Shown here: piece after piece, positions 3,530 through 55,650 of the stretch | Position numbering within the stretch: the stretch's first letter is position 1 | Layout of the letters: every line of letters begins with the position of its first letter | From: Escherichia coli | Lineage (GTDB): Bacteria > Pseudomonadota > Gammaproteobacteria > Enterobacterales > Enterobacteriaceae | Assembly (NCBI RefSeq): GCF_050920415.1 | Contig: NZ_CP169309.1 | Strand: one strand, 5' to 3' | Length of the DNA: 64,000 nt | Notes under the pieces: generated by a model | What the model was told of the DNA's origin: nothing | Databases searched by the model: none | Seen by the model: only the letters and a program-made list of their open reading frames with translations | Program-made: the position numbers and the translations under genes

Positions 3530-4012
3530 TCACGCAAAACAGAGTTCCTGTTCAGGAATACTTTCAACATCACAGTTGTCACTGCCGCCGCGATCGATGG
3601 TCAGAAAATCGGTGACGCGCTGCCAGGCGAAAAGTGGGTGATGCCAGACGTTACGATGGTAATTCACTCCCTGTTCACCGTTGGTAATAAACGCCCGCAG
3701 GGTTGACAGGTCTGGTTTGTCGTCACCTAACGCCACGACCACCACAAACACTTCCCCTTTCATCGGAATAAAGGCCTGAGTGCCCAGCGGATGACGTTCG
3801 AGTTCGTGAATGGTCAGCGGCAGATTCGCCGGTTGCGCGCGGTTAATGCTGATAAGCGTACGGTCTTGCTCAAGAATCTCAACCAGCGCCAAATCGTGGT
3901 AACGCTCCACCAGGCCATTGTTAATATGGAAAAAATCCCGTTGCTGCGTTTCGATTACGTCGCCATAAGCACTAAAGGCTTCCTGACTTAACGGTAATAC
4001 CTGAAGTTTCAT
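3530..4012 (-). CDS. allA: ureidoglycolate lyase
   Basis: 160-aa [24 protein letters not shown]...; conserved neighbourhood with allR and allS. Confidence 0.88.
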
Positions 4013-4116
4013 CTTTTTGTCCTTGTAACATAATTCCGTTCAACCACCGCCGACCGGTCAATGTGGTTCAATAACAGGCAATCTAAAACCTTAAGAGAAC
4101 AACATCAATACAAATG

Positions 4117-4240: not shown

Positions 4241-5167
4241 ATGTTCGATCCAGAAACCTTGCGGACTTTCATTGCGGTTGCTGAAACAGGAAGTTTTTCA
4301 AAAGCGGCAGAACGATTATGTAAAACCACGGCGACGATCAGTTATCGCATTAAACTTCTGGAAGAGAATACCGGAGTGGCGCTGTTTTTCCGCACGACTC
4401 GCAGCGTGACGTTGACAGCGGCTGGCGAGCATCTACTTTCTCAGGCCAGAGACTGGCTGAGCTGGCTGGAAAGTATGCCCAGCGAGCTGCAACAGGTGAA
4501 TGATGGCGTGGAACGCCAGGTGAATATTGTCATCAACAACCTGCTCTACAACCCCCAGGCCGTCGCCCAGCTGCTGGCGTGGCTGAATGAACGTTACCCC
4601 TTTACCCAGTTTCACATCTCCCGACAAATCTATATGGGCGTCTGGGACTCGCTATTGTACGAAGGTTTTTCACTGGCTATCGGCGTCACGGGAACCGAGG
4701 CGCTGGCAAATACCTTTAGTCTTGATCCCTTAGGATCGGTGCAATGGCGCTTTGTCATGGCGGCGGATCATCCGCTGGCGAAAGTTGAAGAGCCGCTAAC
4801 AGAAGCGCAGTTGCGGCGCTTTCCGGCGGTTAATATTGAAGACAGCGCCCGCACCTTAACCAAGCGCGTCGCCTGGCGTTTGCCGGGGCAAAAAGAGATT
4901 ATTGTTCCCGATATGGAAACGAAAATCGCCGCCCATCTGGCGGGCGTTGGCATTGGTTTTTTGCCAAAATCACTTTGCCAGTCAATGATCGATAATCAAC
5001 AATTGATCTGCCGGGTAATCCCAACGATGCGCCCTCCTTCGCCATTGAGTCTGGCATGGCGCAAATTTGGCAGCGGCAAAGCGGTAGAAGATATTGTGGC
5101 CTTGTTTACCCAGCGCAGGCCGGAAATCAGCGGATTTTTAGAAATTTTCGGCAACCCACGCAGTTAA
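4241..5167 (+). CDS. allS: LysR-type transcriptional activator of allantoin catabolism
   Basis: 308-aa ORF with N-terminal LysR HTH ([20 protein letters not shown]) and LysR substrate-binding domain; divergent from allA. Confidence 0.88.
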
Positions 5168-24469: not shown

Positions 24470-25387
24470 ATGCTTATCTTTATCCCGATTCTCATTTTTG
24501 TCGCGCTGGTCATTGTTGGCGCGGGCGTCAAAATCGTGCCGCAGGGCTATCAGTGGACAGTAGAACGTTTTGGTCGCTATACCAAAACGTTACAGCCAGG
24601 GCTAAGTCTGGTGGTGCCGTTTATGGATCGCATTGGTCGCAAGATCAATATGATGGAGCAAGTGCTCGATATCCCTTCCCAGGAAGTTATCTCGAAAGAT
24701 AACGCCAACGTTACCATCGACGCCGTGTGCTTTATTCAGGTGATTGATGCCCCGCGCGCGGCTTATGAAGTCAGCAATCTGGAGCTGGCGATCATCAATC
24801 TGACCATGACTAACATCCGTACCGTACTGGGTTCAATGGAACTTGACGAAATGCTCTCCCAGCGCGACAGCATCAACTCACGCCTGCTGCGTATTGTCGA
24901 TGAGGCCACCAACCCGTGGGGGATTAAAGTCACCCGTATTGAAATTCGCGACGTGCGCCCACCGGCAGAGCTTATCTCTTCAATGAACGCGCAGATGAAA
25001 GCGGAACGTACCAAACGCGCTTACATCCTTGAAGCGGAAGGGATCCGTCAGGCGGAAATCCTCAAAGCCGAAGGTGAAAAACAGTCGCAAATCCTGAAAG
25101 CGGAAGGTGAGCGTCAGTCGGCATTTTTGCAAGCTGAAGCGCGTGAACGTTCCGCCGAAGCAGAAGCCCGTGCCACTAAAATGGTGTCGGAAGCCATCGC
25201 CTCTGGTGATATTCAGGCAGTGAACTACTTCGTCGCACAGAAATACACCGAAGCGTTACAGCAGATCGGTTCATCCAGTAACAGCAAAGTAGTGATGATG
25301 CCATTAGAGGCCAGCAGCCTGATGGGGTCGATTGCCGGGATTGCCGAGCTGGTGAAAGACAGCGCCAACAAACGGACTCAGCCATGA
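24470..25387 (+). CDS. qmcA: SPFH/band-7 (stomatin/prohibitin-family) membrane protein
   Basis: 305-aa ORF with N-terminal TM segment and SPFH domain, coiled-coil rich in EAEG/KAEG repeats. Confidence 0.88.
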
Positions 25388-25842
25388 TGGAGTTAATGGT
25401 CGTTCATCCACATATTTTCTGGCTCAGTCTCGGCGGGTTGTTGCTGGCAGCCGAGATGTTGGGCGGAAATGGTTATCTGTTGTGGAGCGGCGTGGCAGCG
25501 GTGATTACCGGCCTGGTGGTCTGGCTGGTGCCGCTGGGTTGGGAGTGGCAAGGGGTGATGTTTGCCGTCCTGACGCTGCTCGCCGCCTGGTTGTGGTGGA
25601 AATGGCTGGCACGAGGCGTGCGCGAACAAAAGCACAGTGACAGTCATTTAAACCAGCGCGGGCAGCAGCTTATTGGCCGACGTTTTGTGCTGGAATCTCC
25701 GCTGGTCAACGGGCGCGGTCATATGCGCGTCGGTGACAGTTCATGGCCTGTCAGCGCCAGCGAGGATCTCGGCGCAGGTACGCATGTTGAGGTGATTGCG
25801 ATAGAAGGGATAACGCTGATTATCCGTGCGGTCATCGCCTGA
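25384..25842 (+). CDS. ybbJ: NfeD-like inner membrane protein, partner of QmcA
   Basis: 152-aa ORF overlapping the qmcA stop by 4 bp; TM segments plus C-terminal OB-like domain. Confidence 0.85.
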
Positions 25843-25844
25843 CG

Positions 25845-25915
25845 CGTCTTATCACACCCGGAAATCTGTACTAAAAATCATGCCGGATAAGGCGTTTACG
25901 CCGCATCCGGCATAT
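25845..25915. repeat. REP palindromic units downstream of ybbJ
   Basis: ATGCCGGATAAGGCGTTTACGCCGCATCCGGCAT matches the REP consensus. Confidence 0.55.
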
Positions 25916-25933
25916 AGCCGAGTAGTGGCAAAA

Positions 25934-26296
25934 TTACTCTTCCCGGCCTTTCCCCATACTTTTTTGGTCTTCATCCGGATAGTGTTTTTTTAGATATTCC
26001 AGGACGTTTTTATTGACCTTGTGTTGCGTATACACCCACCCTTTCCAGTAATCAGGCTGGTCCAGATAAACTTCTGGCGGAATGGTGAAATCAGAAAGCG
26101 TTAACCATTCGGCTAACAGATCGGGGTTTCGCTTCTGGATCAACTGCAACAGCATGATCAGCGACATGGCAGAGGCAGGAGCCGTACTATCGCCACTTAA
26201 ATATTTCCACACCGTTGATCGGTTCGAACGAAAAAGGATGGGAAGCAGCGCCCGGTCCAGATTCATTTCATTAAAAATCTTCTCAAATTCATTCAT
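25934..26296 (-). CDS. hypothetical protein (strain-specific insertion between ybbJ and cueR)
   Basis: 120-aa ORF; not part of the K-12 ybbJ-cueR junction as I recall it; function unknown. Confidence 0.4.
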   Translation of the reverse strand: MNEFEKIFNEMNLDRALLPILFRSNRSTVWKYLSGDSTAPASAMSLIMLLQLIQKRNPDLLAEWLTLSDFTIPPEVYLDQPDYWKGWVYTQHKVNKNVLEYLKKHYPDEDQKSMGKGREE

Positions 26297-26661
26297 TTAA
26301 TTTTCCTGCCTGGCGTAAACCTCTTAAAAATTGAGATTTATCAAAGAAACGCATTTTAGCACACATCAGGAACTGCTTCACGTTTAGTCCAGAAACAGAA
26401 TTTATTTCGCTTATCAAAACAAGTCTTTACTCTTTTTTACATTGAAAGAGCACGAAATGATTTCCTTTTTTATTTATATGAGAAACCATTTTTGTTTCTT
26501 ATTGATGGCGTTTACGCTTACACCAGACAAAAATGCGCTTTACATCACACAAATGGCGGCGTAGATTTCGATTAAATTGCAACGTAGTTTATTTCTTAAA
26601 ACAATATTATTTGTTTCTTATAGAAACATTAATGCGACTTATTTTGAACAAGAGAAAATGA

Positions 26662-27678
26662 ATGAAAACTGTAAACGTAGCTTTACTGGCACTCATAATT
26701 TCAGCAACATCCAGCCCTATTGTTTTAGCTGGTGATACCATTGAAGCGGCGGCAACAGAGCTTTCAGCCATTAACTCTGGCATGTCGCAATCGGAGATTG
26801 AGCAGAAGATTACCCGCTTTTTAGAACGCACCGACAACAGCCCCGCTGCATATACCTATTTGACTGAACATCACTACATCCCTTCTGAAACACCTGATAC
26901 CACTCTGACTCCCCCTGTCCAGACAGATCCTGACGCAGGACAAAAAACCGTTGCCGCTACAGGTGATGTACAGACAACCGCCCGTTATCAGAGCATGATC
27001 AACGCCCGACAGTCTGCGGTAACTGATGCCCAGCAAACGCAAATTACAGAGCAACAGGCGCAGATCGTAGCCACACAAAAAACGCTCGCCGCGACTGGAG
27101 ATACGCAAAATACCGCGCATTATCAGGAGATGATTAATGCCAGGCTGGCGGCTCAAAATGAGGCTAATCAGCGCACTACCACTGAACAAGGGCAGAAAAT
27201 GAATGCGCTGACAACCGATGTGGCAGCACAACAGCAATATGAAAGGACTCAATACGATAAACAAATGCAAAGTCTGGCGCAGAAGTCTGTCCAGGCACAT
27301 GAGCAAATTGAAAGTCTGAGACAAGATTCCGCACAAACGCAGCAACAGTTAACCAACACCCAAAACCGGGTCGCTGATAACAGCCAGCAAATTAACACGC
27401 TCAATAACCATTTCGATTCGCTGAAAAACGAAGTTGAGGACAATCGTAAAGAAGCCAATGCGGGAACTGCATCTGCCATCGCTATCGCCTCACAACCACA
27501 GGTGAAAACCGGTGACTTGATGATGGTGTCAGCGGGAGCGGGAACGTTCAACGGTGAATCTGCGGTGTCTGTAGGAACATCTTTTAATGCCGGAACGCAT
27601 ACGGTACTTAAAGCAGGTATTTCTGCGGATACACAATCTGATTTCGGTACGGGTGTCGGCGTGGGATATTCGTTCTAA
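26662..27678 (+). CDS. mini trimeric-autotransporter-like protein (signal peptide, Gln-rich coiled-coil stalk with internal repeat, YadA-type C-terminal anchor)
   Basis: N-terminal signal peptide MKTVNVALLALIISATSSPIVLA; C-terminal AGTASAIAIASQPQ...GDLMMVSAGAGTFNGESAVSVGTSF...KAGISADTQSDFGTGVGVGYSF follows the YadA/Hia/Eib anchor pattern with terminal aromatic residue; repeat KTVAATGDVQTTARYQSMINAR / KTLAATGDTQNTAHYQEMINAR. Confidence 0.6.
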   Translation: MKTVNVALLALIISATSSPIVLAGDTIEAAATELSAINSGMSQSEIEQKITRFLERTDNSPAAYTYLTEHHYIPSETPDTTLTPPVQTDPDAGQKTVAATGDVQTTARYQSMINARQSAVTDAQQTQITEQQAQIVATQKTLAATGDTQNTAHYQEMINARLAAQNEANQRTTTEQGQKMNALTTDVAAQQQYERTQYDKQMQSLAQKSVQAHEQIESLRQDSAQTQQQLTNTQNRVADNSQQINTLNNHFDSLKNEVEDNRKEANAGTASAIAIASQPQVKTGDLMMVSAGAGTFNGESAVSVGTSFNAGTHTVLKAGISADTQSDFGTGVGVGYSF

Positions 27679-27731
27679 TTTTAACAGCAATTTCTTATTC
27701 GCAATTTTCCGTACATTATTTAAGGTTAACA

Positions 27732-28154
27732 ATGATGAATAGCTCCATTAAATCGTTTTCCCTGCTGGCGGTTATATTACTGGCTGGCTGTAGTTCACCC
27801 ACTTCCCGCATCGCAGATTGCCAGGCGCAGGGCGTCAGTCATGATACCTGTTATCTCGCAGAACAACAGCGTCAGACGGCTATTTTAAGTGCATCCGAGG
27901 CGCAGGCATTTAAAAATGCAGAAGCCGCACAACATGCCCAGGCGGCAAAGAAAGCCATTTATAAAGGATTTGGCATGACCTTTAGAATGAGCAGTAAGAA
28001 CTTTGCTTATCTCAATGATTCATTATGTGCAATTGATGAAGACAATAAAGATGCCACTGTTTATCAGTCAGGTCTTTATAACGTCATTGTTTATCACCAC
28101 ACGGGAAAAGTCGCCTTAATGAAGGAAGGTCAGTTTGTGGGTTATTTAAAATGA
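27732..28154 (+). CDS. putative lipoprotein
   Basis: Signal peptide with lipobox LLAGC (MMNSSIKSFSLLAVILLAGCSS); stop overlaps the next start (ATGA). Confidence 0.5.
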   Translation: MMNSSIKSFSLLAVILLAGCSSPTSRIADCQAQGVSHDTCYLAEQQRQTAILSASEAQAFKNAEAAQHAQAAKKAIYKGFGMTFRMSSKNFAYLNDSLCAIDEDNKDATVYQSGLYNVIVYHHTGKVALMKEGQFVGYLK

Positions 28155-28357
28155 AGGAGCAAAGGAAAATCCCCCTGACGCATATTATGATTATCGGTGC
28201 GTTTATTTTTGCCTTCTTACAAGTGGTGTTATTAGCCTCCCTGGTTCACGCTGTGAATGTTAACAACGAAATCCAGGAAGGCTTATTTCAGTCGGGGCGC
28301 ATTATGGTAGAAAGTTTGCAGCATATTCTGTCTGTGCAACCGGTGATTAACGGGTAA
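28151..28357 (+). CDS. small single-pass membrane protein
   Basis: 68-aa ORF with one hydrophobic helix IMIIGAFIFAFLQVVLLASLV; translationally coupled to the lipoprotein gene. Confidence 0.3.
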   Translation: MKEQRKIPLTHIMIIGAFIFAFLQVVLLASLVHAVNVNNEIQEGLFQSGRIMVESLQHILSVQPVING

Positions 28358-28439
28358 GAGCACCGCTTCCATTTATAGAGCAATAGTCACCAGCGTAATT
28401 TTCTGGCACAGTTCAGGGAACTGAAATTTTGGCTAAGGA

Positions 28440-29669
28440 GTGGCCATGCTTTTTCCCTTTCGAAAACCTGAAGTACGTCTGCTGAAAAATACCGCTGCGG
28501 GCGTCATTTTTTCGGTGAAGTCAGGTAAAGGATTTCTGCGTCAATGTGTGATTTACGATCCGCACCCTTATGGGCTTATCCGTTCGCTCTGCTGGCAGGA
28601 TGTCCCGTTAATACGTTTCTGGTCCGAGGCTGGCTGCCCCACCTGTGCGGAATTTGTCTACAGCGGTTTTGCGGATGATGAACAGGGAGCCGCCCGGTTT
28701 TTGTCTGCTCTCGAAAACTGGAATCGCCCGTGGTCTGGCATGACGGACGCTTTTGCCGCGCTGACACCGCTGTTCTCATGCATGGCTGATGGCTATTATC
28801 TGCTCGAAGATCGTGAACTTTACCCGACGGATGGCAACGGGCATTTCTTTTGGGCGGCAACGGACCATAGCGCCAGTAATCCGGCGACCGTTGCCGTCTG
28901 GGATCCTGAATATTGCTATTTCAGTGACACCGCCCCCTGTTTTCTTCTACCCGGCCAGCCGCCATCACATTTTAATCCTGAGCGTGCGACGTTTTATCGC
29001 GATAAACCGGACGCCCGCGCTCTGGCCTGGTATCTCCCTGATTCCTATCTCTGCGTTCTGCTCGACGGACACCATAAAGCAACAGCCGCCGCGCTGGAAG
29101 GGCGACCGCTCAAAACACTGGTGCTCAGCACGGCAACCCATTTTAATGATGAGCAACAAACCCTGGTATTTCCGGGCGGAGAATGTCTGCACAAAACAGA
29201 GCTACTGTGCCAGGTTCCCAAACTCACTGAGTGGAAAACATTACCGCCCGGCGCATGGGAGAGTTTCGGCCCTGATAAGCACATCAGCCCATCCGAAACC
29301 TGGTCAGAAGAGTTGCAGCAGAGCGTCAGTCGGTACCCTTCACTGGATCAAGCCTGGCAAATTGTTGAGGCCGGGAATTTGAGCGAAGCTCGTATTAAGC
29401 GCATGATCCAACAAGGTTTGGAGGGGGATGAAAAGGCTGATGTTATTTTGCAGGCACTGTTTTCCACATACTCGCCGCTTTTTGTTGACTTTGCTCGATT
29501 CGTTATCAGCCATCCGGCATACGCCATTTATCGCCCTCTCACCTTCCGGTTGATGGCGCAAAACCGAACGCCGCAAGCAGATGCTTTTTTTCTGGATTTT
29601 GCCATCAATGATGACGGCGAACGTCCGGAGTTGACGAAAATAATGGACGACTATTTTCGCAAGCCTTAA
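28440..29669 (+). CDS. hypothetical cytoplasmic protein (409 aa, Trp/Cys-rich), unknown function
   Basis: Long ORF with an SD-like AGGAG upstream; ends exactly at the cueR stop (convergent); no motif I can assign. Confidence 0.45.
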   Translation: MAMLFPFRKPEVRLLKNTAAGVIFSVKSGKGFLRQCVIYDPHPYGLIRSLCWQDVPLIRFWSEAGCPTCAEFVYSGFADDEQGAARFLSALENWNRPWSGMTDAFAALTPLFSCMADGYYLLEDRELYPTDGNGHFFWAATDHSASNPATVAVWDPEYCYFSDTAPCFLLPGQPPSHFNPERATFYRDKPDARALAWYLPDSYLCVLLDGHHKATAAALEGRPLKTLVLSTATHFNDEQQTLVFPGGECLHKTELLCQVPKLTEWKTLPPGAWESFGPDKHISPSETWSEELQQSVSRYPSLDQAWQIVEAGNLSEARIKRMIQQGLEGDEKADVILQALFSTYSPLFVDFARFVISHPAYAIYRPLTFRLMAQNRTPQADAFFLDFAINDDGERPELTKIMDDYFRKP

Positions 29670-30077
29670 TCACCCCGCTCGATGATGACAGCAGCCGGAG
29701 AGATTTTCGATAATTGGGCAGTCGGCGCTGTCATCACCGGGGCAGGCATTCGCCAGCGCCAGTAGCTGGTCGCGCATGGATTGCAGCTCCTCAATGTGCC
29801 GTTCGATCTCCGCTACCTTCTCCAGCGTACGACGTTTGACGTCGGCACTGTGACGCTGCGGATCGTTAAACAGATTCACCAGTTCGCCGCTCTCTTCCAG
29901 GTTAAAGCCCACCTGGCGCGCCTGGCGCAGTAAGGTCAGTTCGTTGAGATGCTGCTGCGTGTAGGTTCGATAACCATTTTCGCTGCGCATCGGCGGCGTC
30001 ACTAGCCCCTTTTCTTCATAGAAGCGAATGGCTTTGCTGGTCAGGCCGGTAATTTTTGCTACATCGCTAATGTTCAT
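29670..30077 (-). CDS. cueR: MerR-family copper-responsive transcriptional regulator
   Basis: 135-aa [29 protein letters not shown]... with C-terminal metal-binding Cys pair (CPGDDSADC), matching recalled CueR. Confidence 0.92.
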
Positions 30078-31249
30078 CGTTCGCGCAACGCCTCCTGTGC
30101 TTTGTTAAAGGGTTTCAACAGATAATCCAGCACGCTTTTTTTGCCGGTGCGGATATCGACCGTCGCCACCATGCCGGGAAATATCGGAAACTGCTGTTTA
30201 TGTTTATTTTCCAGATGGTTGCTGAAAGTGCGAATGTACACCCGATAGTAATAAACATCGCGTCGCACTTCATCCTGCACGGTGTCTGGTGATATCACCG
30301 CCACTTCCCCCGGCAGGCCGCCGTAGATGGAGTAGTCGTAAGCGGTTATTTTCACCAGCGATTTTTGCCCCGGATGGATAAACGCCACATCGCGGGGGGA
30401 GATTTTTGCCTCGATCAACAGTTGCTCATCCAGCGGCACGATAGTCATAAGTTTACCACCGGGGGCGATGACGCCGCCAACCGTGGTGACGTCAATGTCC
30501 TGAACAATGCCTCGCACCGGCGCAGTAAAGTTGAGCCGGGTGAGAGAATCTTCCCGCCCGCGGATCACCGAACGCTGGGTTTCCACTTCCGCATTGGCTT
30601 TCGCTAACTCTTCCCGCGCCTGTACGTAGTATTGCGTACGCACGTCGCTAAGTTTGTTTTCCAGTTCATTGGCCTGGCGTTGCAGGCGCAGCACTTCAAC
30701 GCTGCTCGCCGCCCCCTGTTTCACCAGCGGCTGGGTCATCGCCAGTTCGCGGTTGACCAGGCTGATCCCCTGCGTCAGCCCGGTGGTGGCTTTGTTCAAC
30801 CCGTCGCGGCGAGTGTTATATAACGCCGTTTCCGACTCGATAAGTTCGGGGAATTTATTCAGTTCGTCAGGAAAGACCAGCGGTTTATTGCTCACTTCTG
30901 CCCGCAGCCGCGCCGAGGTTGCCAGCGCCGCATACAGCCGCGACATCGCTTCCTGGACGTCGGATTCCGTTTTGGTGCGGTTAAGCTGCGCCAGCGGCTG
31001 CCCCTGTTCGACAATATCGCCAACCTTCACGTCGAGATGATACAAAATCCCGCCTTCCAGCGACTGCACCACCTGTTCGCGTCCAGAAGGTTCTACCGTG
31101 CCGCTGCCGGTGGTGACTTCATCAAGCTGGAAGTACCACGCCCAGCCGAGAAAACAGAGCAGCATCACAGCGGTAACGCGCACCGCCAGCGCCGAACGTG
31201 GCAGGCGGGGTTCAGTCAGGCCACGGTTGTATTGCAGTTGTCCGTTCAT
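30074..31249 (-). CDS. type I secretion periplasmic adaptor (HlyD-family membrane fusion protein)
   Basis: 391-aa ORF with N-terminal TM segment, coiled-coil and beta-barrel domains; overlaps the ABC gene by 4 bp. Confidence 0.85.
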
Positions 31250-33408
31250 GCGGCAGACCCCTTATTCTTCTCCTGCAACACCACGCGTCGCGTCGTGGGT
31301 TCGCCCTGTTCACGCAAAATGGTCTCTTTCGCGCCGTCCATCACAATGCGCCCCTGATCCATCACAATTATCCTGTCCACCAGTTGCAGCATTGCCGTGC
31401 GGTGAGTAGCGATGACCAGCGTGCGATGCCCAATCCACTGTTTTAGTTGTTCAATTAAATACGCTTCCGCCATTTCATCCAGCGAGGCACTGGGTTCATC
31501 GAGCAGGACGATATTGGGTTGAGAGATGAGCAGCCGCGCCAGCAGCAGCGTTTGCCGCTGGCCGCCAGAAAGACCAAATCCCCCTTCCTGAATCATGTAG
31601 TTAAGGCCGTTTTTCTGCTTCTGCACAAACGGCAGCGCCCCGCTGAGGGTCAACGCGCGTTCGATATCTTCATCGCTGGCTTCTGGCATCCCCATGGTGA
31701 GATTTTCCCGCAGCGAACCGAAGAACAGTCGCCCAGTCTGGCTCAGCAGCCCCATGTCGCGGCGCAGATCCGCCGGATCAAGTTGCCCGATGCTGATGTT
31801 ATCCAGCAGCACCTGCCCCTGCTGGGCGATACGCATTCCGGCGAGCATTTGCAGTAGCGTTGATTTACCCGCGCCGTTGCGCCCGAGAATGGCGATTTTC
31901 TCTCCGGCCTGAATGTTGAGTTTGCCGATCGCCACATCGGCAATCTTCTCTTCTTCGTCGTAATAAAACACCGCGTTGCTGAACTGATAATTTCCGTGCA
32001 GCACTGCTTTATGCACCAGTTTGCCGTGTTCCGGCTGATCCACCGGGCGCTTCATCAGTTCATCAAGGCCATTACGCGCCACTTTCGCCTGCTGCCAGCG
32101 CGAAAGCACGCCGGATATCTGCGACAGCGGCGCAATGGTGCGCGAAGCCAGGATCGTCGTCCCGACCAGCGCGCCGGTGGTCATGTCGCCGCTCATCACC
32201 ATAAAGCAGCCCACCAACAGCACCACCACATAGACGATGGATTGCACTTCCTGCGTCCAGGTGAGCAGCAGCCCGGTGAGAAAACGTTGCTTCATACTGA
32301 TGGACGAGGCCACGTCGTTGGTGTGATTCCACTGATTCTGGAAACGCTGTTCAGCACGCAGCAGTTTAATGTCTTCAATCGACTGCACGGCCTCGACAAG
32401 CGTAGCGTTGCGCACTGCCGATTCGCGCATCCCTTCGTTCGCCAGCCGCGCCAGCGGGCGTTGCACCAGCAGGCCGGGGATCACCAGCAACGGCAGCGCC
32501 AGCAAAACAACCAGCACCAGCCAGCCGCCGATCATCCACAGAATAAAAACAAACAGCAGGAAGAACGGCAGATCCGCCACCGCGCCAATGGTGGTGGAGG
32601 TGATCAGCTCCCGCACCGATTCCAGTTCGCGGATCTGTGAGATAAACGATCCGGTGGATTTCGATCGCACGTTATTTTTCAGCCGTAATGCGTGACCAAA
32701 CACGCGATCCGAAATACGCAGATCCGCCCGTTTGCCGATCACATCGGAAAGGTGTGTGCGCACCATGCGCATACAGAACTCAAACAGGATCGCCATCATC
32801 ACCCCGGCGAACAGCACCCATAGCGTCGGGTAGGACTGCGCCGGAACAACGCGGTCGTAAACCTGCATCGAGAAAATCATCGCCGCCAGCGCCAGCACGT
32901 TCGCCACCAGCGAGGCCAGCATAATATCGCCATAGCGCCGCCAGTCTTTTAGCGAAAGATTCCAGAACCAGTTAGCCTGATACGGGCGAATGTAGTCATC
33001 CACCCGCGCATCGGGGATGGCGCTGAGCGGGCGCAGTAGCGCCAGTTCAACGATTTTGTCTTCTATATCCGTGACGTTTAGCGTAGTTTCCAGCCCTTCG
33101 TCACCGCTGAACTGAACGCTGATATTATCGTGATTGTCGCGGCGGGTGATCACGCCAATCTGTTGATTATCAAACACCGCGATCAACGGCAGACGCCAGG
33201 GGTTAAGCGAATCAGTGGAAAACTCCACCAGCCGTAGCCCCATCCCCAACTGCCGCGCCATGTCGGTGAGCAACTCTTCCCGCTTGCTGTCGCGCTCCCA
33301 GTTGACGGTCGCGCGCACGTTCTCCTGGGAAAAATCGAGGCGGTAATAACGCGCCACGGCGATCATCGCCTCCAGCCAGGCTTCCACGGACTGGGCATTT
33401 TTTTTCAT
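31246..33408 (-). CDS. type I secretion ABC transporter (N-terminal C39-like domain, permease, ATPase)
   Basis: 720-aa ORF with Walker A GRNGAGKST, signature LSGGQRQ and Walker B LLDEPSASLD; about 130-aa N-terminal extension typical of HlyB-type exporters. Confidence 0.88.
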   Translation of the reverse strand: MKKNAQSVEAWLEAMIAVARYYRLDFSQENVRATVNWERDSKREELLTDMARQLGMGLRLVEFSTDSLNPWRLPLIAVFDNQQIGVITRRDNHDNISVQFSGDEGLETTLNVTDIEDKIVELALLRPLSAIPDARVDDYIRPYQANWFWNLSLKDWRRYGDIMLASLVANVLALAAMIFSMQVYDRVVPAQSYPTLWVLFAGVMMAILFEFCMRMVRTHLSDVIGKRADLRISDRVFGHALRLKNNVRSKSTGSFISQIRELESVRELITSTTIGAVADLPFFLLFVFILWMIGGWLVLVVLLALPLLVIPGLLVQRPLARLANEGMRESAVRNATLVEAVQSIEDIKLLRAEQRFQNQWNHTNDVASSISMKQRFLTGLLLTWTQEVQSIVYVVVLLVGCFMVMSGDMTTGALVGTTILASRTIAPLSQISGVLSRWQQAKVARNGLDELMKRPVDQPEHGKLVHKAVLHGNYQFSNAVFYYDEEEKIADVAIGKLNIQAGEKIAILGRNGAGKSTLLQMLAGMRIAQQGQVLLDNISIGQLDPADLRRDMGLLSQTGRLFFGSLRENLTMGMPEASDEDIERALTLSGALPFVQKQKNGLNYMIQEGGFGLSGGQRQTLLLARLLISQPNIVLLDEPSASLDEMAEAYLIEQLKQWIGHRTLVIATHRTAMLQLVDRIIVMDQGRIVMDGAKETILREQGEPTTRRVVLQEKNKGSAA

Positions 33409-54294: not shown

Positions 54295-55650
54295 TTATTT
54301 CAAGTCGGGTAAGTCGTTGTATAAGCCCTGCTTAATTCCCGCTAATGGAATAAGGTTATTCACCGCAGCGGCATAATTCACAGCGGCAACCCAGCCATCA
54401 TAATTGACATTTATTTCAGCTGATTGCGCCTGAAAGACATCTTGCTCAACGGTTAAGAGATCGTTCAGGCTGCGTTTACCCAATTTATATTCATTTTGGT
54501 ACACATCTCGCGTTCTGTGCGCACTTTCAGATTGCGCTAACCCAGCCTCTTCACGACCCCGTGCCCCAGTCCAGTTGGCATACGCCACCGACGCCCGTTG
54601 CATAACATCTAATTTCGCCTGCTCAACCTGCGACGCGGATATTTTTTGTTGCCCTTCGGCTTGCTGAACCTGAGCCGAAACCGCGCCGCCCTGATACAAC
54701 GGCGCGTTGACGTTCAACTGTAACTGGTCGTCCCAGTACGAGCGGTCGCTGGTCTGGTAGCGTGTTTTGCCGCCCTGAATACTGAGCGTCGGCCAGTATT
54801 GCGCTTTCGTTTTTTCCACACCGTACTGTGCTGACTGGCGTAAGTTTTCTGCCGCCAGCACCAGTGGGATGGACTGGTAATCAATATTTTTCAGCGATAC
54901 CGGCTGCTCGGCTAATTCAGCAGGTGGCGCGGCTATCGCCTCCGGCTGTACGCCAGTAAGCACCGCCAGTTGCGCTTTGGCGCTCGCCATCTGCGCTTGA
55001 TATTTCTCCAGGGTTGAGCGCATTCCGGCAATACGCGTCTGGGCCTGTAATTCATCCGACGATGAGTTCAGGCCAGCGTTAGCGCGCAGCGCCGCCATGT
55101 TGTAGACGTTTTCCAGCGAGTGGATATTGCGTTGAGCCGCATCGCACAACGCCTGATAACGACTGACCTCCATATAGGCAGTCGCCGTTTTTTCGGCAAC
55201 ATCGGTTAAAGTTGCCATCAATTTAAAGCGGTAGCTGTCACGAGCGGCGGTTTGCAGTTTGATATCGTTATCTGTTTTACCGAAGTCATACACCAGCTGT
55301 GTCAGGGTTATGCCATACGAAACGTTGTTATCAAGCCTGCCGCTGGAGTCCGTTTGCCGTGACGGCCCCGCGTTGCTGGTTAATCCAACGTGTGGATACC
55401 AGGCACTTTTGGCTTCATCAATTTGCGCTTCGCCAATACCTATCTGCGCCGCCTGTTGAGTGACGTCGGGATTTCGCGCAAAGGCGCGTAATATACTTTC
55501 CTGTAAAGATAATCGGGCAACTGGCGTTACCGCTGGGGCGTTCGCCCATTGTGGCAGCGGTGCAGCAATTGTAGCTTCTCCCATCACCATAAAACTTATT
55601 AAAAAAATAAGTCCATTATTTTTACGGTTTTTAAACTGGAATCGCGCCAT
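54295..55650 (-). CDS. TolC-family outer membrane channel of the T1SS
   Basis: 451-aa ORF with signal peptide and two-repeat OEP architecture rich in Q/A coiled-coil segments; first gene of the apparent T1SS operon. Confidence 0.82.
   Translation of the reverse strand: MARFQFKNRKNNGLIFLISFMVMGEATIAAPLPQWANAPAVTPVARLSLQESILRAFARNPDVTQQAAQIGIGEAQIDEAKSAWYPHVGLTSNAGPSRQTDSSGRLDNNVSYGITLTQLVYDFGKTDNDIKLQTAARDSYRFKLMATLTDVAEKTATAYMEVSRYQALCDAAQRNIHSLENVYNMAALRANAGLNSSSDELQAQTRIAGMRSTLEKYQAQMASAKAQLAVLTGVQPEAIAAPPAELAEQPVSLKNIDYQSIPLVLAAENLRQSAQYGVEKTKAQYWPTLSIQGGKTRYQTSDRSYWDDQLQLNVNAPLYQGGAVSAQVQQAEGQQKISASQVEQAKLDVMQRASVAYANWTGARGREEAGLAQSESAHRTRDVYQNEYKLGKRSLNDLLTVEQDVFQAQSAEINVNYDGWVAAVNYAAAVNNLIPLAGIKQGLYNDLPDLK

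Follow-up and report, generated by a model that had tools for sequence, protein, structure and literature searches.

The ybbJ–cueR interval of an Escherichia coli genome probably combines O-island 29, a predicted surface-fibre cassette, with a separate and older resident gene

The analysed window is a 64,000-nt stretch of Escherichia coli DNA in which ybbJ (25384–25842, + strand) and cueR (29670–30077, − strand) are separated by a spacer with a REP-type palindrome and by five open reading frames. The first of these, for a 120-aa cytoplasmic protein (25934–26296, − strand), is transcribed divergently from the other four, which lie on the + strand and encode a short trimeric autotransporter (TAA) of 338 aa (26662–27678), a 140-aa lipoprotein (27732–28154), a 68-aa single-pass membrane protein (28151–28357) and a 407-aa cytoplasmic protein of an uncharacterised family (28446–29669). 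An earlier note, made from the letters of the window, had listed the REP element, the five frames, the LLAGC lipobox and an overlapping stop and start, all of which are present. Its reading of a mini-TAA, a lipoprotein and a coupled small membrane protein is borne out by a YadA_anchor match, the lipobox, and an ATGA overlap followed by a hydrophobic segment, and its statement that ybbJ and cueR adjoin in K-12 is correct, with 0 nt between the two stop codons in K-12-type genomes. The palindrome (GCCGGATAAGGCG...GCCGCATCCGGC) lies in the ybbJ 3′ spacer within 25843–25933, where the REP-derived Rfam family naRNA4 matches 25881–25939 (+) at 38.6 bits, under the gathering score of 59.5; a stretch of 34 bases of this element is also found elsewhere in E. 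coli genomes.

Boundaries were set by blastn against ATCC 25922, E. albertii, O157:H7 and K-12. The spacer at 25843–25919 is common to cassette-free genomes, and its alignment with ATCC 25922 and E. albertii ends at 25919. The laterally mobile part spans about 25920–28418 (roughly 2.5 kb), and the 407-aa frame ends at 29669, immediately against the cueR stop. The 3.8 kb that the earlier note took for an insertion is absent from K-12, as it said, but is not one insertion: it consists of a 2.5-kb cassette and a 1.3-kb resident gene.

Positions 25926–28351 align with O157:H7 at 94.6% identity over 2464 bases (blastn). Moreover, the published deletion primers for z0638, gmrA and z0640 (PMC5826968) map to the lipoprotein, TAA and 120-aa genes with 0–2 mismatches in the window, the z0640 primer at 26296–26333, and match O157 exactly. 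Given this identity and the positions of the primers, the cassette is, as judged from sequence, O-island 29 (OI-29) of enterohaemorrhagic E. coli O157:H7, comprising z0640, z0639 and z0638 together with an unannotated 68-aa frame, and has already been described. The set, which the earlier note could not assign, does belong to a described system: there is a published study of the island (PMC5826968), and RefSeq already names the z0639 product a YadA family autotransporter adhesin. The cassette is probably also S-loop 43/ECs0548, the ‘Saa-like protein’ of strain Sakai, an equation based on description and strain distribution only and not on sequence.

By its distribution the locus is accessory, and the island is a known one. 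The cassette occurs in about 1413 of 5426 complete E. coli genomes (about 26%), close to the published OI-29 prevalence of 64 of 231. The 120-aa gene is full length in 1413 of the 5426, as is the lipoprotein and 68-aa pair, and the TAA was detected in 1381. Outside E. coli, Pseudocitrobacter has the same four-gene order (regulator-like, TAA, lipoprotein, 68-aa type) in two loci elsewhere on the chromosome; Enterobacter asburiae has a TAA and lipoprotein pair without the 68-aa gene, and Symbiopectobacterium has a decayed copy. The divergent position of the 120-aa gene is kept in Pseudocitrobacter and Symbiopectobacterium, and the 407-aa gene is never part of the cassette in the other genera examined. 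Taken together, the TAA, lipoprotein, 68-aa and divergent 120-aa genes travel as a unit. The earlier note's same-strand set accordingly holds for the first three, joined by the 120-aa gene, but not for its last member.

The TAA gene, z0639 or ‘gmrA’, encodes a protein whose residues 279–338 match Pfam YadA_anchor PF03895 over the whole model (1–60 of 60, E 1.5e-11) and whose PDB matches are the anchors of AtaA (4e-7), Hia (4e-6) and YadA. Residues 1–23 form a predicted Sec signal peptide (MKTVNVALLALIISATSSPIVLA↓G; mean hydropathy 1.9). The passenger, with 0 Cys and a Q+A+T content of 42%, begins with a conserved cap (about 50 aa) and continues as a Q/A/T-rich stalk with a repeated TxAATGDxQxTAxYQxMINAR unit, which the anchor follows. 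NCBIfam returned TAA and coiled-coil matches only. Alleles of 338 aa and about 471 aa exist, with variation in length and sequence confined to the passenger; in about 350 genomes the TAA allele is 60–90% identical while the flanking cassette genes remain at 90% or above. Variation restricted to the passenger is consistent with a surface antigen. From its domain content, the protein is predicted to be a trimeric autotransporter (type Vc) that trimerises and is displayed at the surface.

The lipoprotein z0638 (lipobox LLAG↓CSS) has a helical hairpin with a Cys-x9-Cys pattern, one long helix and a C-terminal eight-stranded β-barrel resembling the MliC/PliC barrels. Its Ser at +2 predicts sorting to the outer membrane, and the lipid Cys is followed by SS, ST, TS or VS in 22 of 22 family members. 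In E. coli, the two Pseudocitrobacter loci and E. asburiae, a YadA_anchor gene immediately precedes that of the lipoprotein; two stand-alone family copies without a TAA adjoin ecotin and umuDC, respectively. The 68-aa gene overlaps the z0638 stop through ATGA and is not annotated in EDL933. Its product has one strongly hydrophobic segment (best 19-residue hydropathy window 2.65), in both Pseudocitrobacter loci a homologue (38–47% identity, E ~1e-11) comes after the lipoprotein, and it co-occurs with the lipoprotein in the 1413 genomes.

Between the divergent genes lies an AT-rich control region (26297–26661, about 34% GC by composition scan) with GAAAC/GTTTC repeats, palindromes and, in a promoter scan, a promoter-like site, TTTACA-17-TAGATT, at 26539–26567 (+). 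Across four loci from three genera there is no variation in the promoter block or in four GAAAC motifs. The 120-aa z0640 homologue gave mutually concordant helix–turn–helix (HTH) matches, all below significance (Pfam MqsA_antitoxin, E 0.12 and 0.012; Xre-like-HTH, 0.047), as is its PDB match to the HTH of HigA-2 (E ~0.6 over residues 3–51). These weak matches suggest that the protein probably regulates the cassette as a small HTH protein of the Xre/MqsA type, most likely by controlling the shared AT-rich promoter region.

The 407-aa gene has a different history. Its likely start is the ATG at 28446, 5 nt after AAGGAG and also the PGAP start; the GTG at 28440, which gives the 409 aa of the earlier note, is less likely. 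The product, described there as rich in Trp and Cys, is only modestly enriched in them (2.7% and 2.5%), and of these residues the family conserves no more than C64, C67 and W136. A structural model shows an N-terminal β-domain that bears a CPTC motif, then a core of ParB/sulfiredoxin-like type and, at the C-terminus, a HEAT-like helical repeat. Across 75 sequences D207, G208, H209, H210 and A214 do not vary, and we take the invariant DGHH to be the DGHHR / GxxRxxA-type nucleotide-binding-loop signature of Pfam ParBc. A search of Pfam gave no ParBc match at E up to 10 and only an irrelevant match to P2_C. The modelled core is ParB/sulfiredoxin-like in fold, and the protein may bind or hydrolyse nucleotide. 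E. albertii, ATCC 25922 and a further enterobacterial contig (a copy 49% identical) have the gene by itself at the ybbJ–cueR site; a Salmonella homologue lies between rihA and hscC, and Firmicutes homologues occupy unrelated contexts. It is deleted in O157 and K-12, intact in 270 of the 5426 complete genomes and present as a pseudogene or remnant only in about 700. From these comparisons, the 407-aa gene is an older resident of the site, separate from OI-29; it appears to be undergoing loss in many E. coli lineages and would have no functional tie to the cassette.

We weighed several accounts of the interval, of which the one we favour, as probable, holds that it contains two independent things: a self-contained, horizontally mobile surface-fibre cassette, OI-29, and the older, functionally unconnected 407-aa gene. 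The alternative of one five-gene envelope system, in which the earlier note had cast the 409-aa protein as cytoplasmic partner, draws on the adjacency of the same-strand genes, on the 88 nt from the 68-aa stop to the 407-aa start with no convincing terminator, and on at least 133 genomes that carry all five genes. Gene distribution largely refutes it: in about 1280 genomes, O157 among them, the cassette is present but an intact 407-aa gene is not, in about 137 the intact gene occurs where the cassette is missing, and homologues elsewhere never adjoin a TAA; we regard it as highly improbable. Equally hard to credit is the idea that the cassette is left over from a prophage or mobile element and that its fibre and lipoprotein serve superinfection exclusion or receptor masking. 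The TAA does match PHROG families of prophage-encoded adhesins and tails (phrog_17426, E 4.5e-21), and one Pseudocitrobacter copy adjoins a large serine recombinase, but the PHROG matches are confined to the generic stalk and anchor, and the E. coli cassette contains no phage or integrase genes. Nor does PADLOC lend support to phage defence, and with it to the phage-related role that had been suggested: nothing passes the default cut-off of 0.001, and coiled-coil cross-matching accounts for the weak TAA matches (best E 0.003, JetC/LmuB types). The lipoprotein might instead be an autonomous envelope-protection factor, for example a host lysozyme inhibitor of the MliC/PliC type, rather than a helper of the fibre, making the cassette a host-defence evasion module of a serum-resistance-type fibre plus an inhibitor. 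The barrel fold speaks for this reading, which we nevertheless consider unlikely. Pfam MliC matched none of the 22 family members and, to our knowledge, the family does not carry the conserved inhibitory loop motifs of MliC/PliC.

The published account of the island differs from all of these. It makes z0639 (GmrA) a cytoplasmic activator that binds the fliA promoter and turns on flagellar genes, and OI-29 a regulatory island. Deletion of z0639 or of OI-29 lowered motility and flagella as well as transcripts of fliA, fliC and motA; motility was complemented by z0639 alone; His-tagged z0639 (0–120 nM) shifted a fliA promoter fragment in EMSA; ChIP–qPCR gave enrichment at that promoter; and deletion of the orthologue had the same effect in eight strains (PMC5826968). 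Δz0638 and Δz0640 had no motility phenotype (PMC5826968). However, the gmrA deletion arms and primers of Yang et al. 2018 exactly flank the 338-aa TAA frame, in the window and in O157, so that the gene deleted and expressed in that study is the YadA-anchor autotransporter, with a passenger that differs among alleles in the manner of a surface antigen. Its N-terminal signal peptide and C-terminal barrel predict export of the native protein from the cytoplasm. For the in vitro work, a His tag was placed ahead of the intact signal peptide, and the ChIP construct had 3xFLAG straight after the terminal Phe of the barrel; both tag positions would keep the protein out of the outer membrane. No recognisable DNA-binding domain was found with Pfam or NCBIfam, the only DNA-binding-like match being Pfam TMF_DNA_bd (E 0.088) to coiled-coil residues 203–252, which is typical coiled-coil cross-matching. 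Because a signal peptide and an outer-membrane anchor are encoded in the same gene, a direct DNA-binding role of ‘GmrA’ seems doubtful, and we judge the activator model quite unlikely; the motility loss of Δz0639 would more likely be indirect and envelope-mediated. An adhesion role, as the earlier note had offered, has weak published support, as adherence of the ΔOI-29 mutant to HeLa and Caco-2 cells was normal (PMC5826968). The three OI-29 genes of O157 are co-transcribed and are jointly shut off upon HeLa contact (Table S3).

Under the favoured reading of a fibre cassette beside an unrelated gene, the 338-aa protein would cross the inner membrane through Sec and be inserted as a trimer by BAM, and its passenger would form a short, mostly coiled-coil surface stalk with a small N-terminal cap. 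The outer-membrane-sorted lipoprotein and the coupled 68-aa inner-membrane protein would act with the fibre in the periplasm, where the pair may aid export or folding or anchor the fibre base, as SadB and TpgA do for other TAAs; we infer this helper role from synteny only, and the stand-alone lipoprotein copies and the lack of the 68-aa gene in E. asburiae count against it. More tentatively, z0638 and the 68-aa protein could be a third class of TAA-dedicated envelope partners, structurally unrelated to SadB and TpgA, with ‘GmrA’ not a transcription factor and the motility defect reflecting a signal passed to the flagellar regulon by a fibre in the outer membrane, a proposal we hold as possible rather than probable. 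A 2026 survey reported no TAA helpers beyond SadB and TpgA; it covered only TAAs with a YadA head and would therefore have missed the headless z0639 group.

Compared with OI-29 of O157, the cassette lies at the same chromosomal site with the same genes in the same order, but the window additionally has the 407-aa gene, lost from O157. The original annotation overlooked the 68-aa frame, and the published function, a transcription factor, is at odds with the domains of the protein. Relative to the ParB/sulfiredoxin superfamily (ParB/KorB, PadC, sulfiredoxin and the serine kinases SerK/SbnI), the 407-aa protein adds the CPTC β-domain and the HEAT-like solenoid, and lacks an HTH or other DNA-binding domain and partner genes. 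The TAA resembles Saa and the prophage-encoded Eib proteins in size class, in its coiled-coil stalk and YadA anchor, and in matching the same PHROG adhesin families; by contrast, it lacks a YadA-like head or neck and any other Pfam passenger domain, and the z0639 group is set apart by its N-terminal cap (about 50 aa) and its YQxMINAR stalk repeat. AtaA–TpgA of Acinetobacter exemplifies the kind of role proposed here, in that a small envelope protein encoded beside a TAA aids its display or anchoring, but TpgA is BamE/OmpA-like and no BamE or OmpA domain was detected in any cassette protein. In the SadA–SadB system of Salmonella, SadB is the dedicated trimeric lipoprotein of the SadA trimeric autotransporter (PMC3953254), likewise encoded in an operon-like unit with the TAA. 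Both lipoproteins have a long helix followed by a β-domain, and both families have stand-alone paralogues (YajI for SadB; the copies beside ecotin and umuDC for z0638). However, z0638 has no sequence or fold relation to SadB: its C-domain is an eight-stranded MliC/PliC-like barrel as opposed to the MATH-like domain of SadB, its +2 residue is Ser (outer membrane) where SadB has Asp (inner membrane), and its gene lies downstream of the TAA gene and is accompanied by that of the 68-aa membrane protein, whereas sadB lies upstream.

The segment between ybbJ and cueR contains every feature that the earlier note had named in it. ybbJ ends at 25842 and is followed by a spacer bearing a REP-type palindrome; an Rfam scan returned a sub-threshold naRNA4/REP match there (25881–25939) and no other match. 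Beyond it lie a 120-aa ORF on the minus strand (25934–26296), an AT-rich gap of 365 bp (about 34% GC) and, on the plus strand, a 338-aa trimeric autotransporter (TAA) ORF (26662–27678), a 140-aa lipoprotein ORF (27732–28154) and a 68-aa ORF (28151–28357) whose start overlaps the stop of the 140-aa ORF in an ATGA. The last plus-strand ORF ends at 29669, abutting the stop of cueR (29670–30077, minus strand). It had been read as 409 aa, and a better start is the ATG at 28446, preceded 5 nt upstream by AAGGAG and also used by PGAP, giving 407 aa. This gene and cueR are convergent with no spacer (window 29666–29673), and their counterparts on a homologous contig overlap by 4 nt (L014, 6200–6203). 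The adjacency of ybbJ and cueR that the earlier note gives for K-12 is borne out in a K-12 derivative, in which the two stops touch with 0 bases between them.

We aligned the window by blastn to five reference configurations. In ATCC 25922 and Escherichia albertii, the spacer alignment runs to 25919 and picks up again at 28419 or 28427, and the site holds only ybbJ, the 407-aa gene and cueR. In O157:H7, positions 25926–28351 align at 94.6% identity and lead directly to cueR, leaving a four-gene cassette without the 407-aa gene. In ST131-like genomes the 407-aa gene has lost two internal stretches and is annotated as frameshifted, and on a metagenomic enterobacterial contig the ybbJ–cueR slot is occupied by a homologue of 49% identity. 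On the evidence of these alignments, the 407-aa gene has long occupied the site and the cassette (about 25920–28418) is an insertion between it and ybbJ. Neither a target-site duplication nor an integrase was found at the cassette ends. A terminator scan of the junction with the 407-aa gene gave nothing convincing, so transcriptional read-through from the cassette into that gene is possible.

On its distribution, counted across 5,426 complete E. coli genomes, we reject a single five-gene operon or system. The 120-aa gene occurs in 1,415 genomes (1,413 full length) and the lipoprotein and 68-aa pair in 1,416 (1,413 full length), and the TAA gene is detectable in 1,381. Of the 5,426 genomes, 965 have the 407-aa gene, with at least 80% length coverage in 270 copies only, and 133 have the entire 4.1 kb; E. 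coli is in the process of losing this gene. The earlier note had suggested that the surface protein, the lipoprotein and the 409-aa cytoplasmic protein could form an adhesion, phage-receptor-masking or envelope module. An accessory TAA module is indeed real, but the distribution places the cytoplasmic protein outside it, and the island had already been described.

That island is O-island 29 (OI-29), reported as a 2,643-bp element carrying z0638, z0639 ('gmrA') and z0640 (Yang et al. 2018, PMC5826968). The identification comes from mapping the Datsenko–Wanner homology arms in Table S2 of PMC5826968 onto the window and O157:H7. The gmrA arms fall at 26623–26661 and 27679–27716 in the window and match O157:H7 exactly (4012–4050 and 5068–5105), where the ORF they precisely bracket is annotated by RefSeq as 'YadA family autotransporter adhesin'. 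The z0640 arm borders directly on the 120-aa gene, as one z0638 arm does on the lipoprotein gene; the 68-aa ORF is missing from the EDL933 annotation. The presence of the island is thus not new. ECs0548, entered in an older Sakai catalogue as a 'Saa-like protein' of S-loop 43, is missing from K-12 and found in UTI89 and APEC, which agrees with the strains in Table S4 of PMC5826968; by description and strain pattern, not by sequence, it is probably the same gene as z0639. Strain 042, in the OI-29 list of PMC5826968, has two trimeric autotransporters according to the EAEC 042 genome paper.

The residual interest lies in the pair of lipoprotein and small membrane protein, in the family of the 407-aa protein, and in the published mechanism of GmrA set against the evident nature of the protein. 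z0639 has a typical signal peptide (MKTVNVALLALIISATSSPIVLA|G) and a full-length Pfam YadA_anchor domain (residues 279–338, E = 1.5e-11), and from about residue 244 onwards it matches the anchor structures determined for AtaA, Hia and YadA. Its passenger is Q/A/T-rich and Cys-free, with an internal repeat, TxAATGDxQxTAxYQxMINAR; neither a head, a neck nor any other passenger domain was detected in it. The sole DNA-binding-like match is Pfam TMF_DNA_bd at E = 0.088, on coiled-coil residues 203–252, and the 'putative DNA-binding domain' that PMC5826968 took from the NCBI conserved-domain database may be such a coiled-coil hit. In the protein used there for EMSA a His tag preceded the signal peptide, which was left intact, and in the ChIP construct 3xFLAG followed immediately on the barrel's terminal Phe, arrangements that would block export and keep an autotransporter from its normal compartment. 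The motility phenotype, which was reported in eight strains with complementation (PMC5826968), is reproducible and may well be real. Direct promoter binding by native z0639 is, by contrast, hard to reconcile with its domain content; because the gmrA product reads as an exported outer-membrane fibre, the mechanism was probably misassigned. Later reviews, one from 2024, still treat GmrA as a transcription factor or DNA-binding activator, and within the searchable library the words 'GmrA' and 'autotransporter' occur together only in two such reviews.

Differences between TAA alleles are confined to the passenger: a long allele of about 471 aa shares its signal peptide, N-terminal cap and anchor with the 338-aa allele. 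In about 350 genomes the TAA alleles are at 60–90% identity and the adjoining cassette genes at 90% or more, which is the pattern that would be expected of an exposed surface protein. For E. coli CRE287 (L007, 3206–4639), RefSeq/PGAP starts the long allele internally, giving 349 aa and no signal peptide. The annotated start is probably wrong, since the open frame of 471–477 aa holds an intact signal peptide and the conserved cap. The stalk motif [AK][RH]YQxM[IV]NAR occurs twice in the E. coli TAA (window 26950–27170, residues about 96–170) and again in an otherwise dissimilar Pseudocitrobacter TAA (L018, 2840–3931); to our knowledge it matches no named TAA stalk motif.

The gene order recurs in two Pseudocitrobacter loci, one between fetA and qmcA and the other beside a large serine recombinase: after a divergent 111–121-aa homologue come one or two TAA genes, and then those for the lipoprotein and the small membrane protein. 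In Enterobacter asburiae the lipoprotein gene comes after that of a 293-aa TAA, and Symbiopectobacterium has a decayed copy. Judged from these loci, the cassette travels as a unit. Its control region (26297–26661) contains a promoter-like block, TTTACA-17-TAGATT (26539–26567), and four GAAAC motifs, all kept across E. coli, Pseudocitrobacter and Symbiopectobacterium, with the block invariant; the palindromes GAAAC-N7-GTTTC and GTTTC-N5-GAAAC also lie in this region. Residues 3–63 of the 120-aa protein give concordant, non-significant matches to Xre/MqsA/HigA-type HTH domains, and the GAAAC/GTTTC elements are candidate operators for it. In O157, the three annotated OI-29 genes are on in DMEM and none is on upon HeLa attachment, and adherence of ΔOI-29 to HeLa and Caco-2 cells is unchanged (PMC5826968).

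The 407-aa protein has no match in Pfam, NCBIfam, PHROGs or PADLOC, and has 357 relatives at E ≤ 0.001 among 50%-identity cluster representatives, including Salmonella, Superficieibacter, a betaproteobacterium, many Firmicutes and Fusobacterium. Invariant in the family are T66 (in CPTC), P127, F135, Y184, D207-G-H-H210 and A214. The AF2 model is confident (pLDDT 90.7), with a HEAT-like solenoid as the C-terminal third, and some AFDB50 neighbours sharing the architecture are auto-named ParB-like. A nucleotide-binding or phosphotransfer role, suggested by the fold, is the weakest part of our account. We also considered a possible link to copper: a CxxC motif is conserved in the protein, and the gene adjoins the copper sensor gene cueR in two genera, but its Salmonella and Firmicute homologues lie in unrelated contexts, the Salmonella copy being elsewhere. 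Nor are these contexts related to one another: the Salmonella homologue lies between rihA and hscC and that of Clostridium gelidum among miscellaneous small genes, and of two Firmicute contigs one has it in a T4SS/Tad-like cluster and the other among housekeeping genes. On a Firmicute-type contig (L016, 5001–6275), a member of 34% identity is embedded in a conjugation/Tad-like pilus cluster (TrwB/TraG, TrbL, prepilin peptidase, RcpC and T2SSE ATPase), with a SMODS (CBASS-type) gene and a reverse transcriptase close by. The gene marks a widespread family of the ParB/sulfiredoxin fold that is wholly uncharacterised, an orphan ParB/Srx family.

Past cueR lies an OI-28-type island (30074–55650), with all of its genes on the minus strand: an HlyD adaptor (30074–31249), a T1SS ABC exporter (31246–33408), a giant SiiEA/BapA-related adhesin of 6,924 aa (33412–54186) and a 451-aa ORF (54295–55650). 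With OI-29 on its other side, cueR stands between two different adhesin systems. K-12, ATCC 25922 and others have only a 98-bp HlyD remnant in place of this island.

The conserved pair of lipoprotein and small membrane protein is a candidate new kind of autotransporter partner. The 68-aa protein has a positively charged N-terminus and a single strongly hydrophobic segment, and its tail of about 35 residues is conserved; searches among NCBIfam, PHROGs, PADLOC and Pfam returned nothing. The lipoprotein (z0638) has the lipobox LLAG|CSS, and Asp at +2 is absent throughout the family, which under the standard Lol sorting rule predicts outer-membrane sorting. Its AF2 model comprises a Cys-x9-Cys helical hairpin, a long helix (37–71) and an eight-stranded barrel (75–139), with a C-domain pLDDT of about 90. 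None of 22 family members matches any Pfam family, MliC included, and profile matches are at noise level (TraV, 0.0013; 'XAC1346 secretion chaperone', 0.0017; Lpp-like, 0.03), attributable to the signal peptide and helix. Nothing on XAC1346 turned up in the literature searched, and PDB searches with single sequences and family profiles found nothing significant for the lipoprotein or the 120-aa protein. Any structural kinship of the lipoprotein with MliC/PliC is, from the modelled fold, distant at best. Membership of the family of SadB, the helper lipoprotein of the Salmonella TAA SadA, is ruled out by sequence, fold and sorting signal. Lipoprotein homologues of 42–48% identity also occur with no TAA nearby (L020, 4001–4423; L021, 4001–4411), one divergent from ecotin and one beside umuDC, and these count against an exclusive link to TAAs. 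SadB likewise has a stand-alone paralogue, YajI, just as the cassette lipoprotein has its lone homologues.
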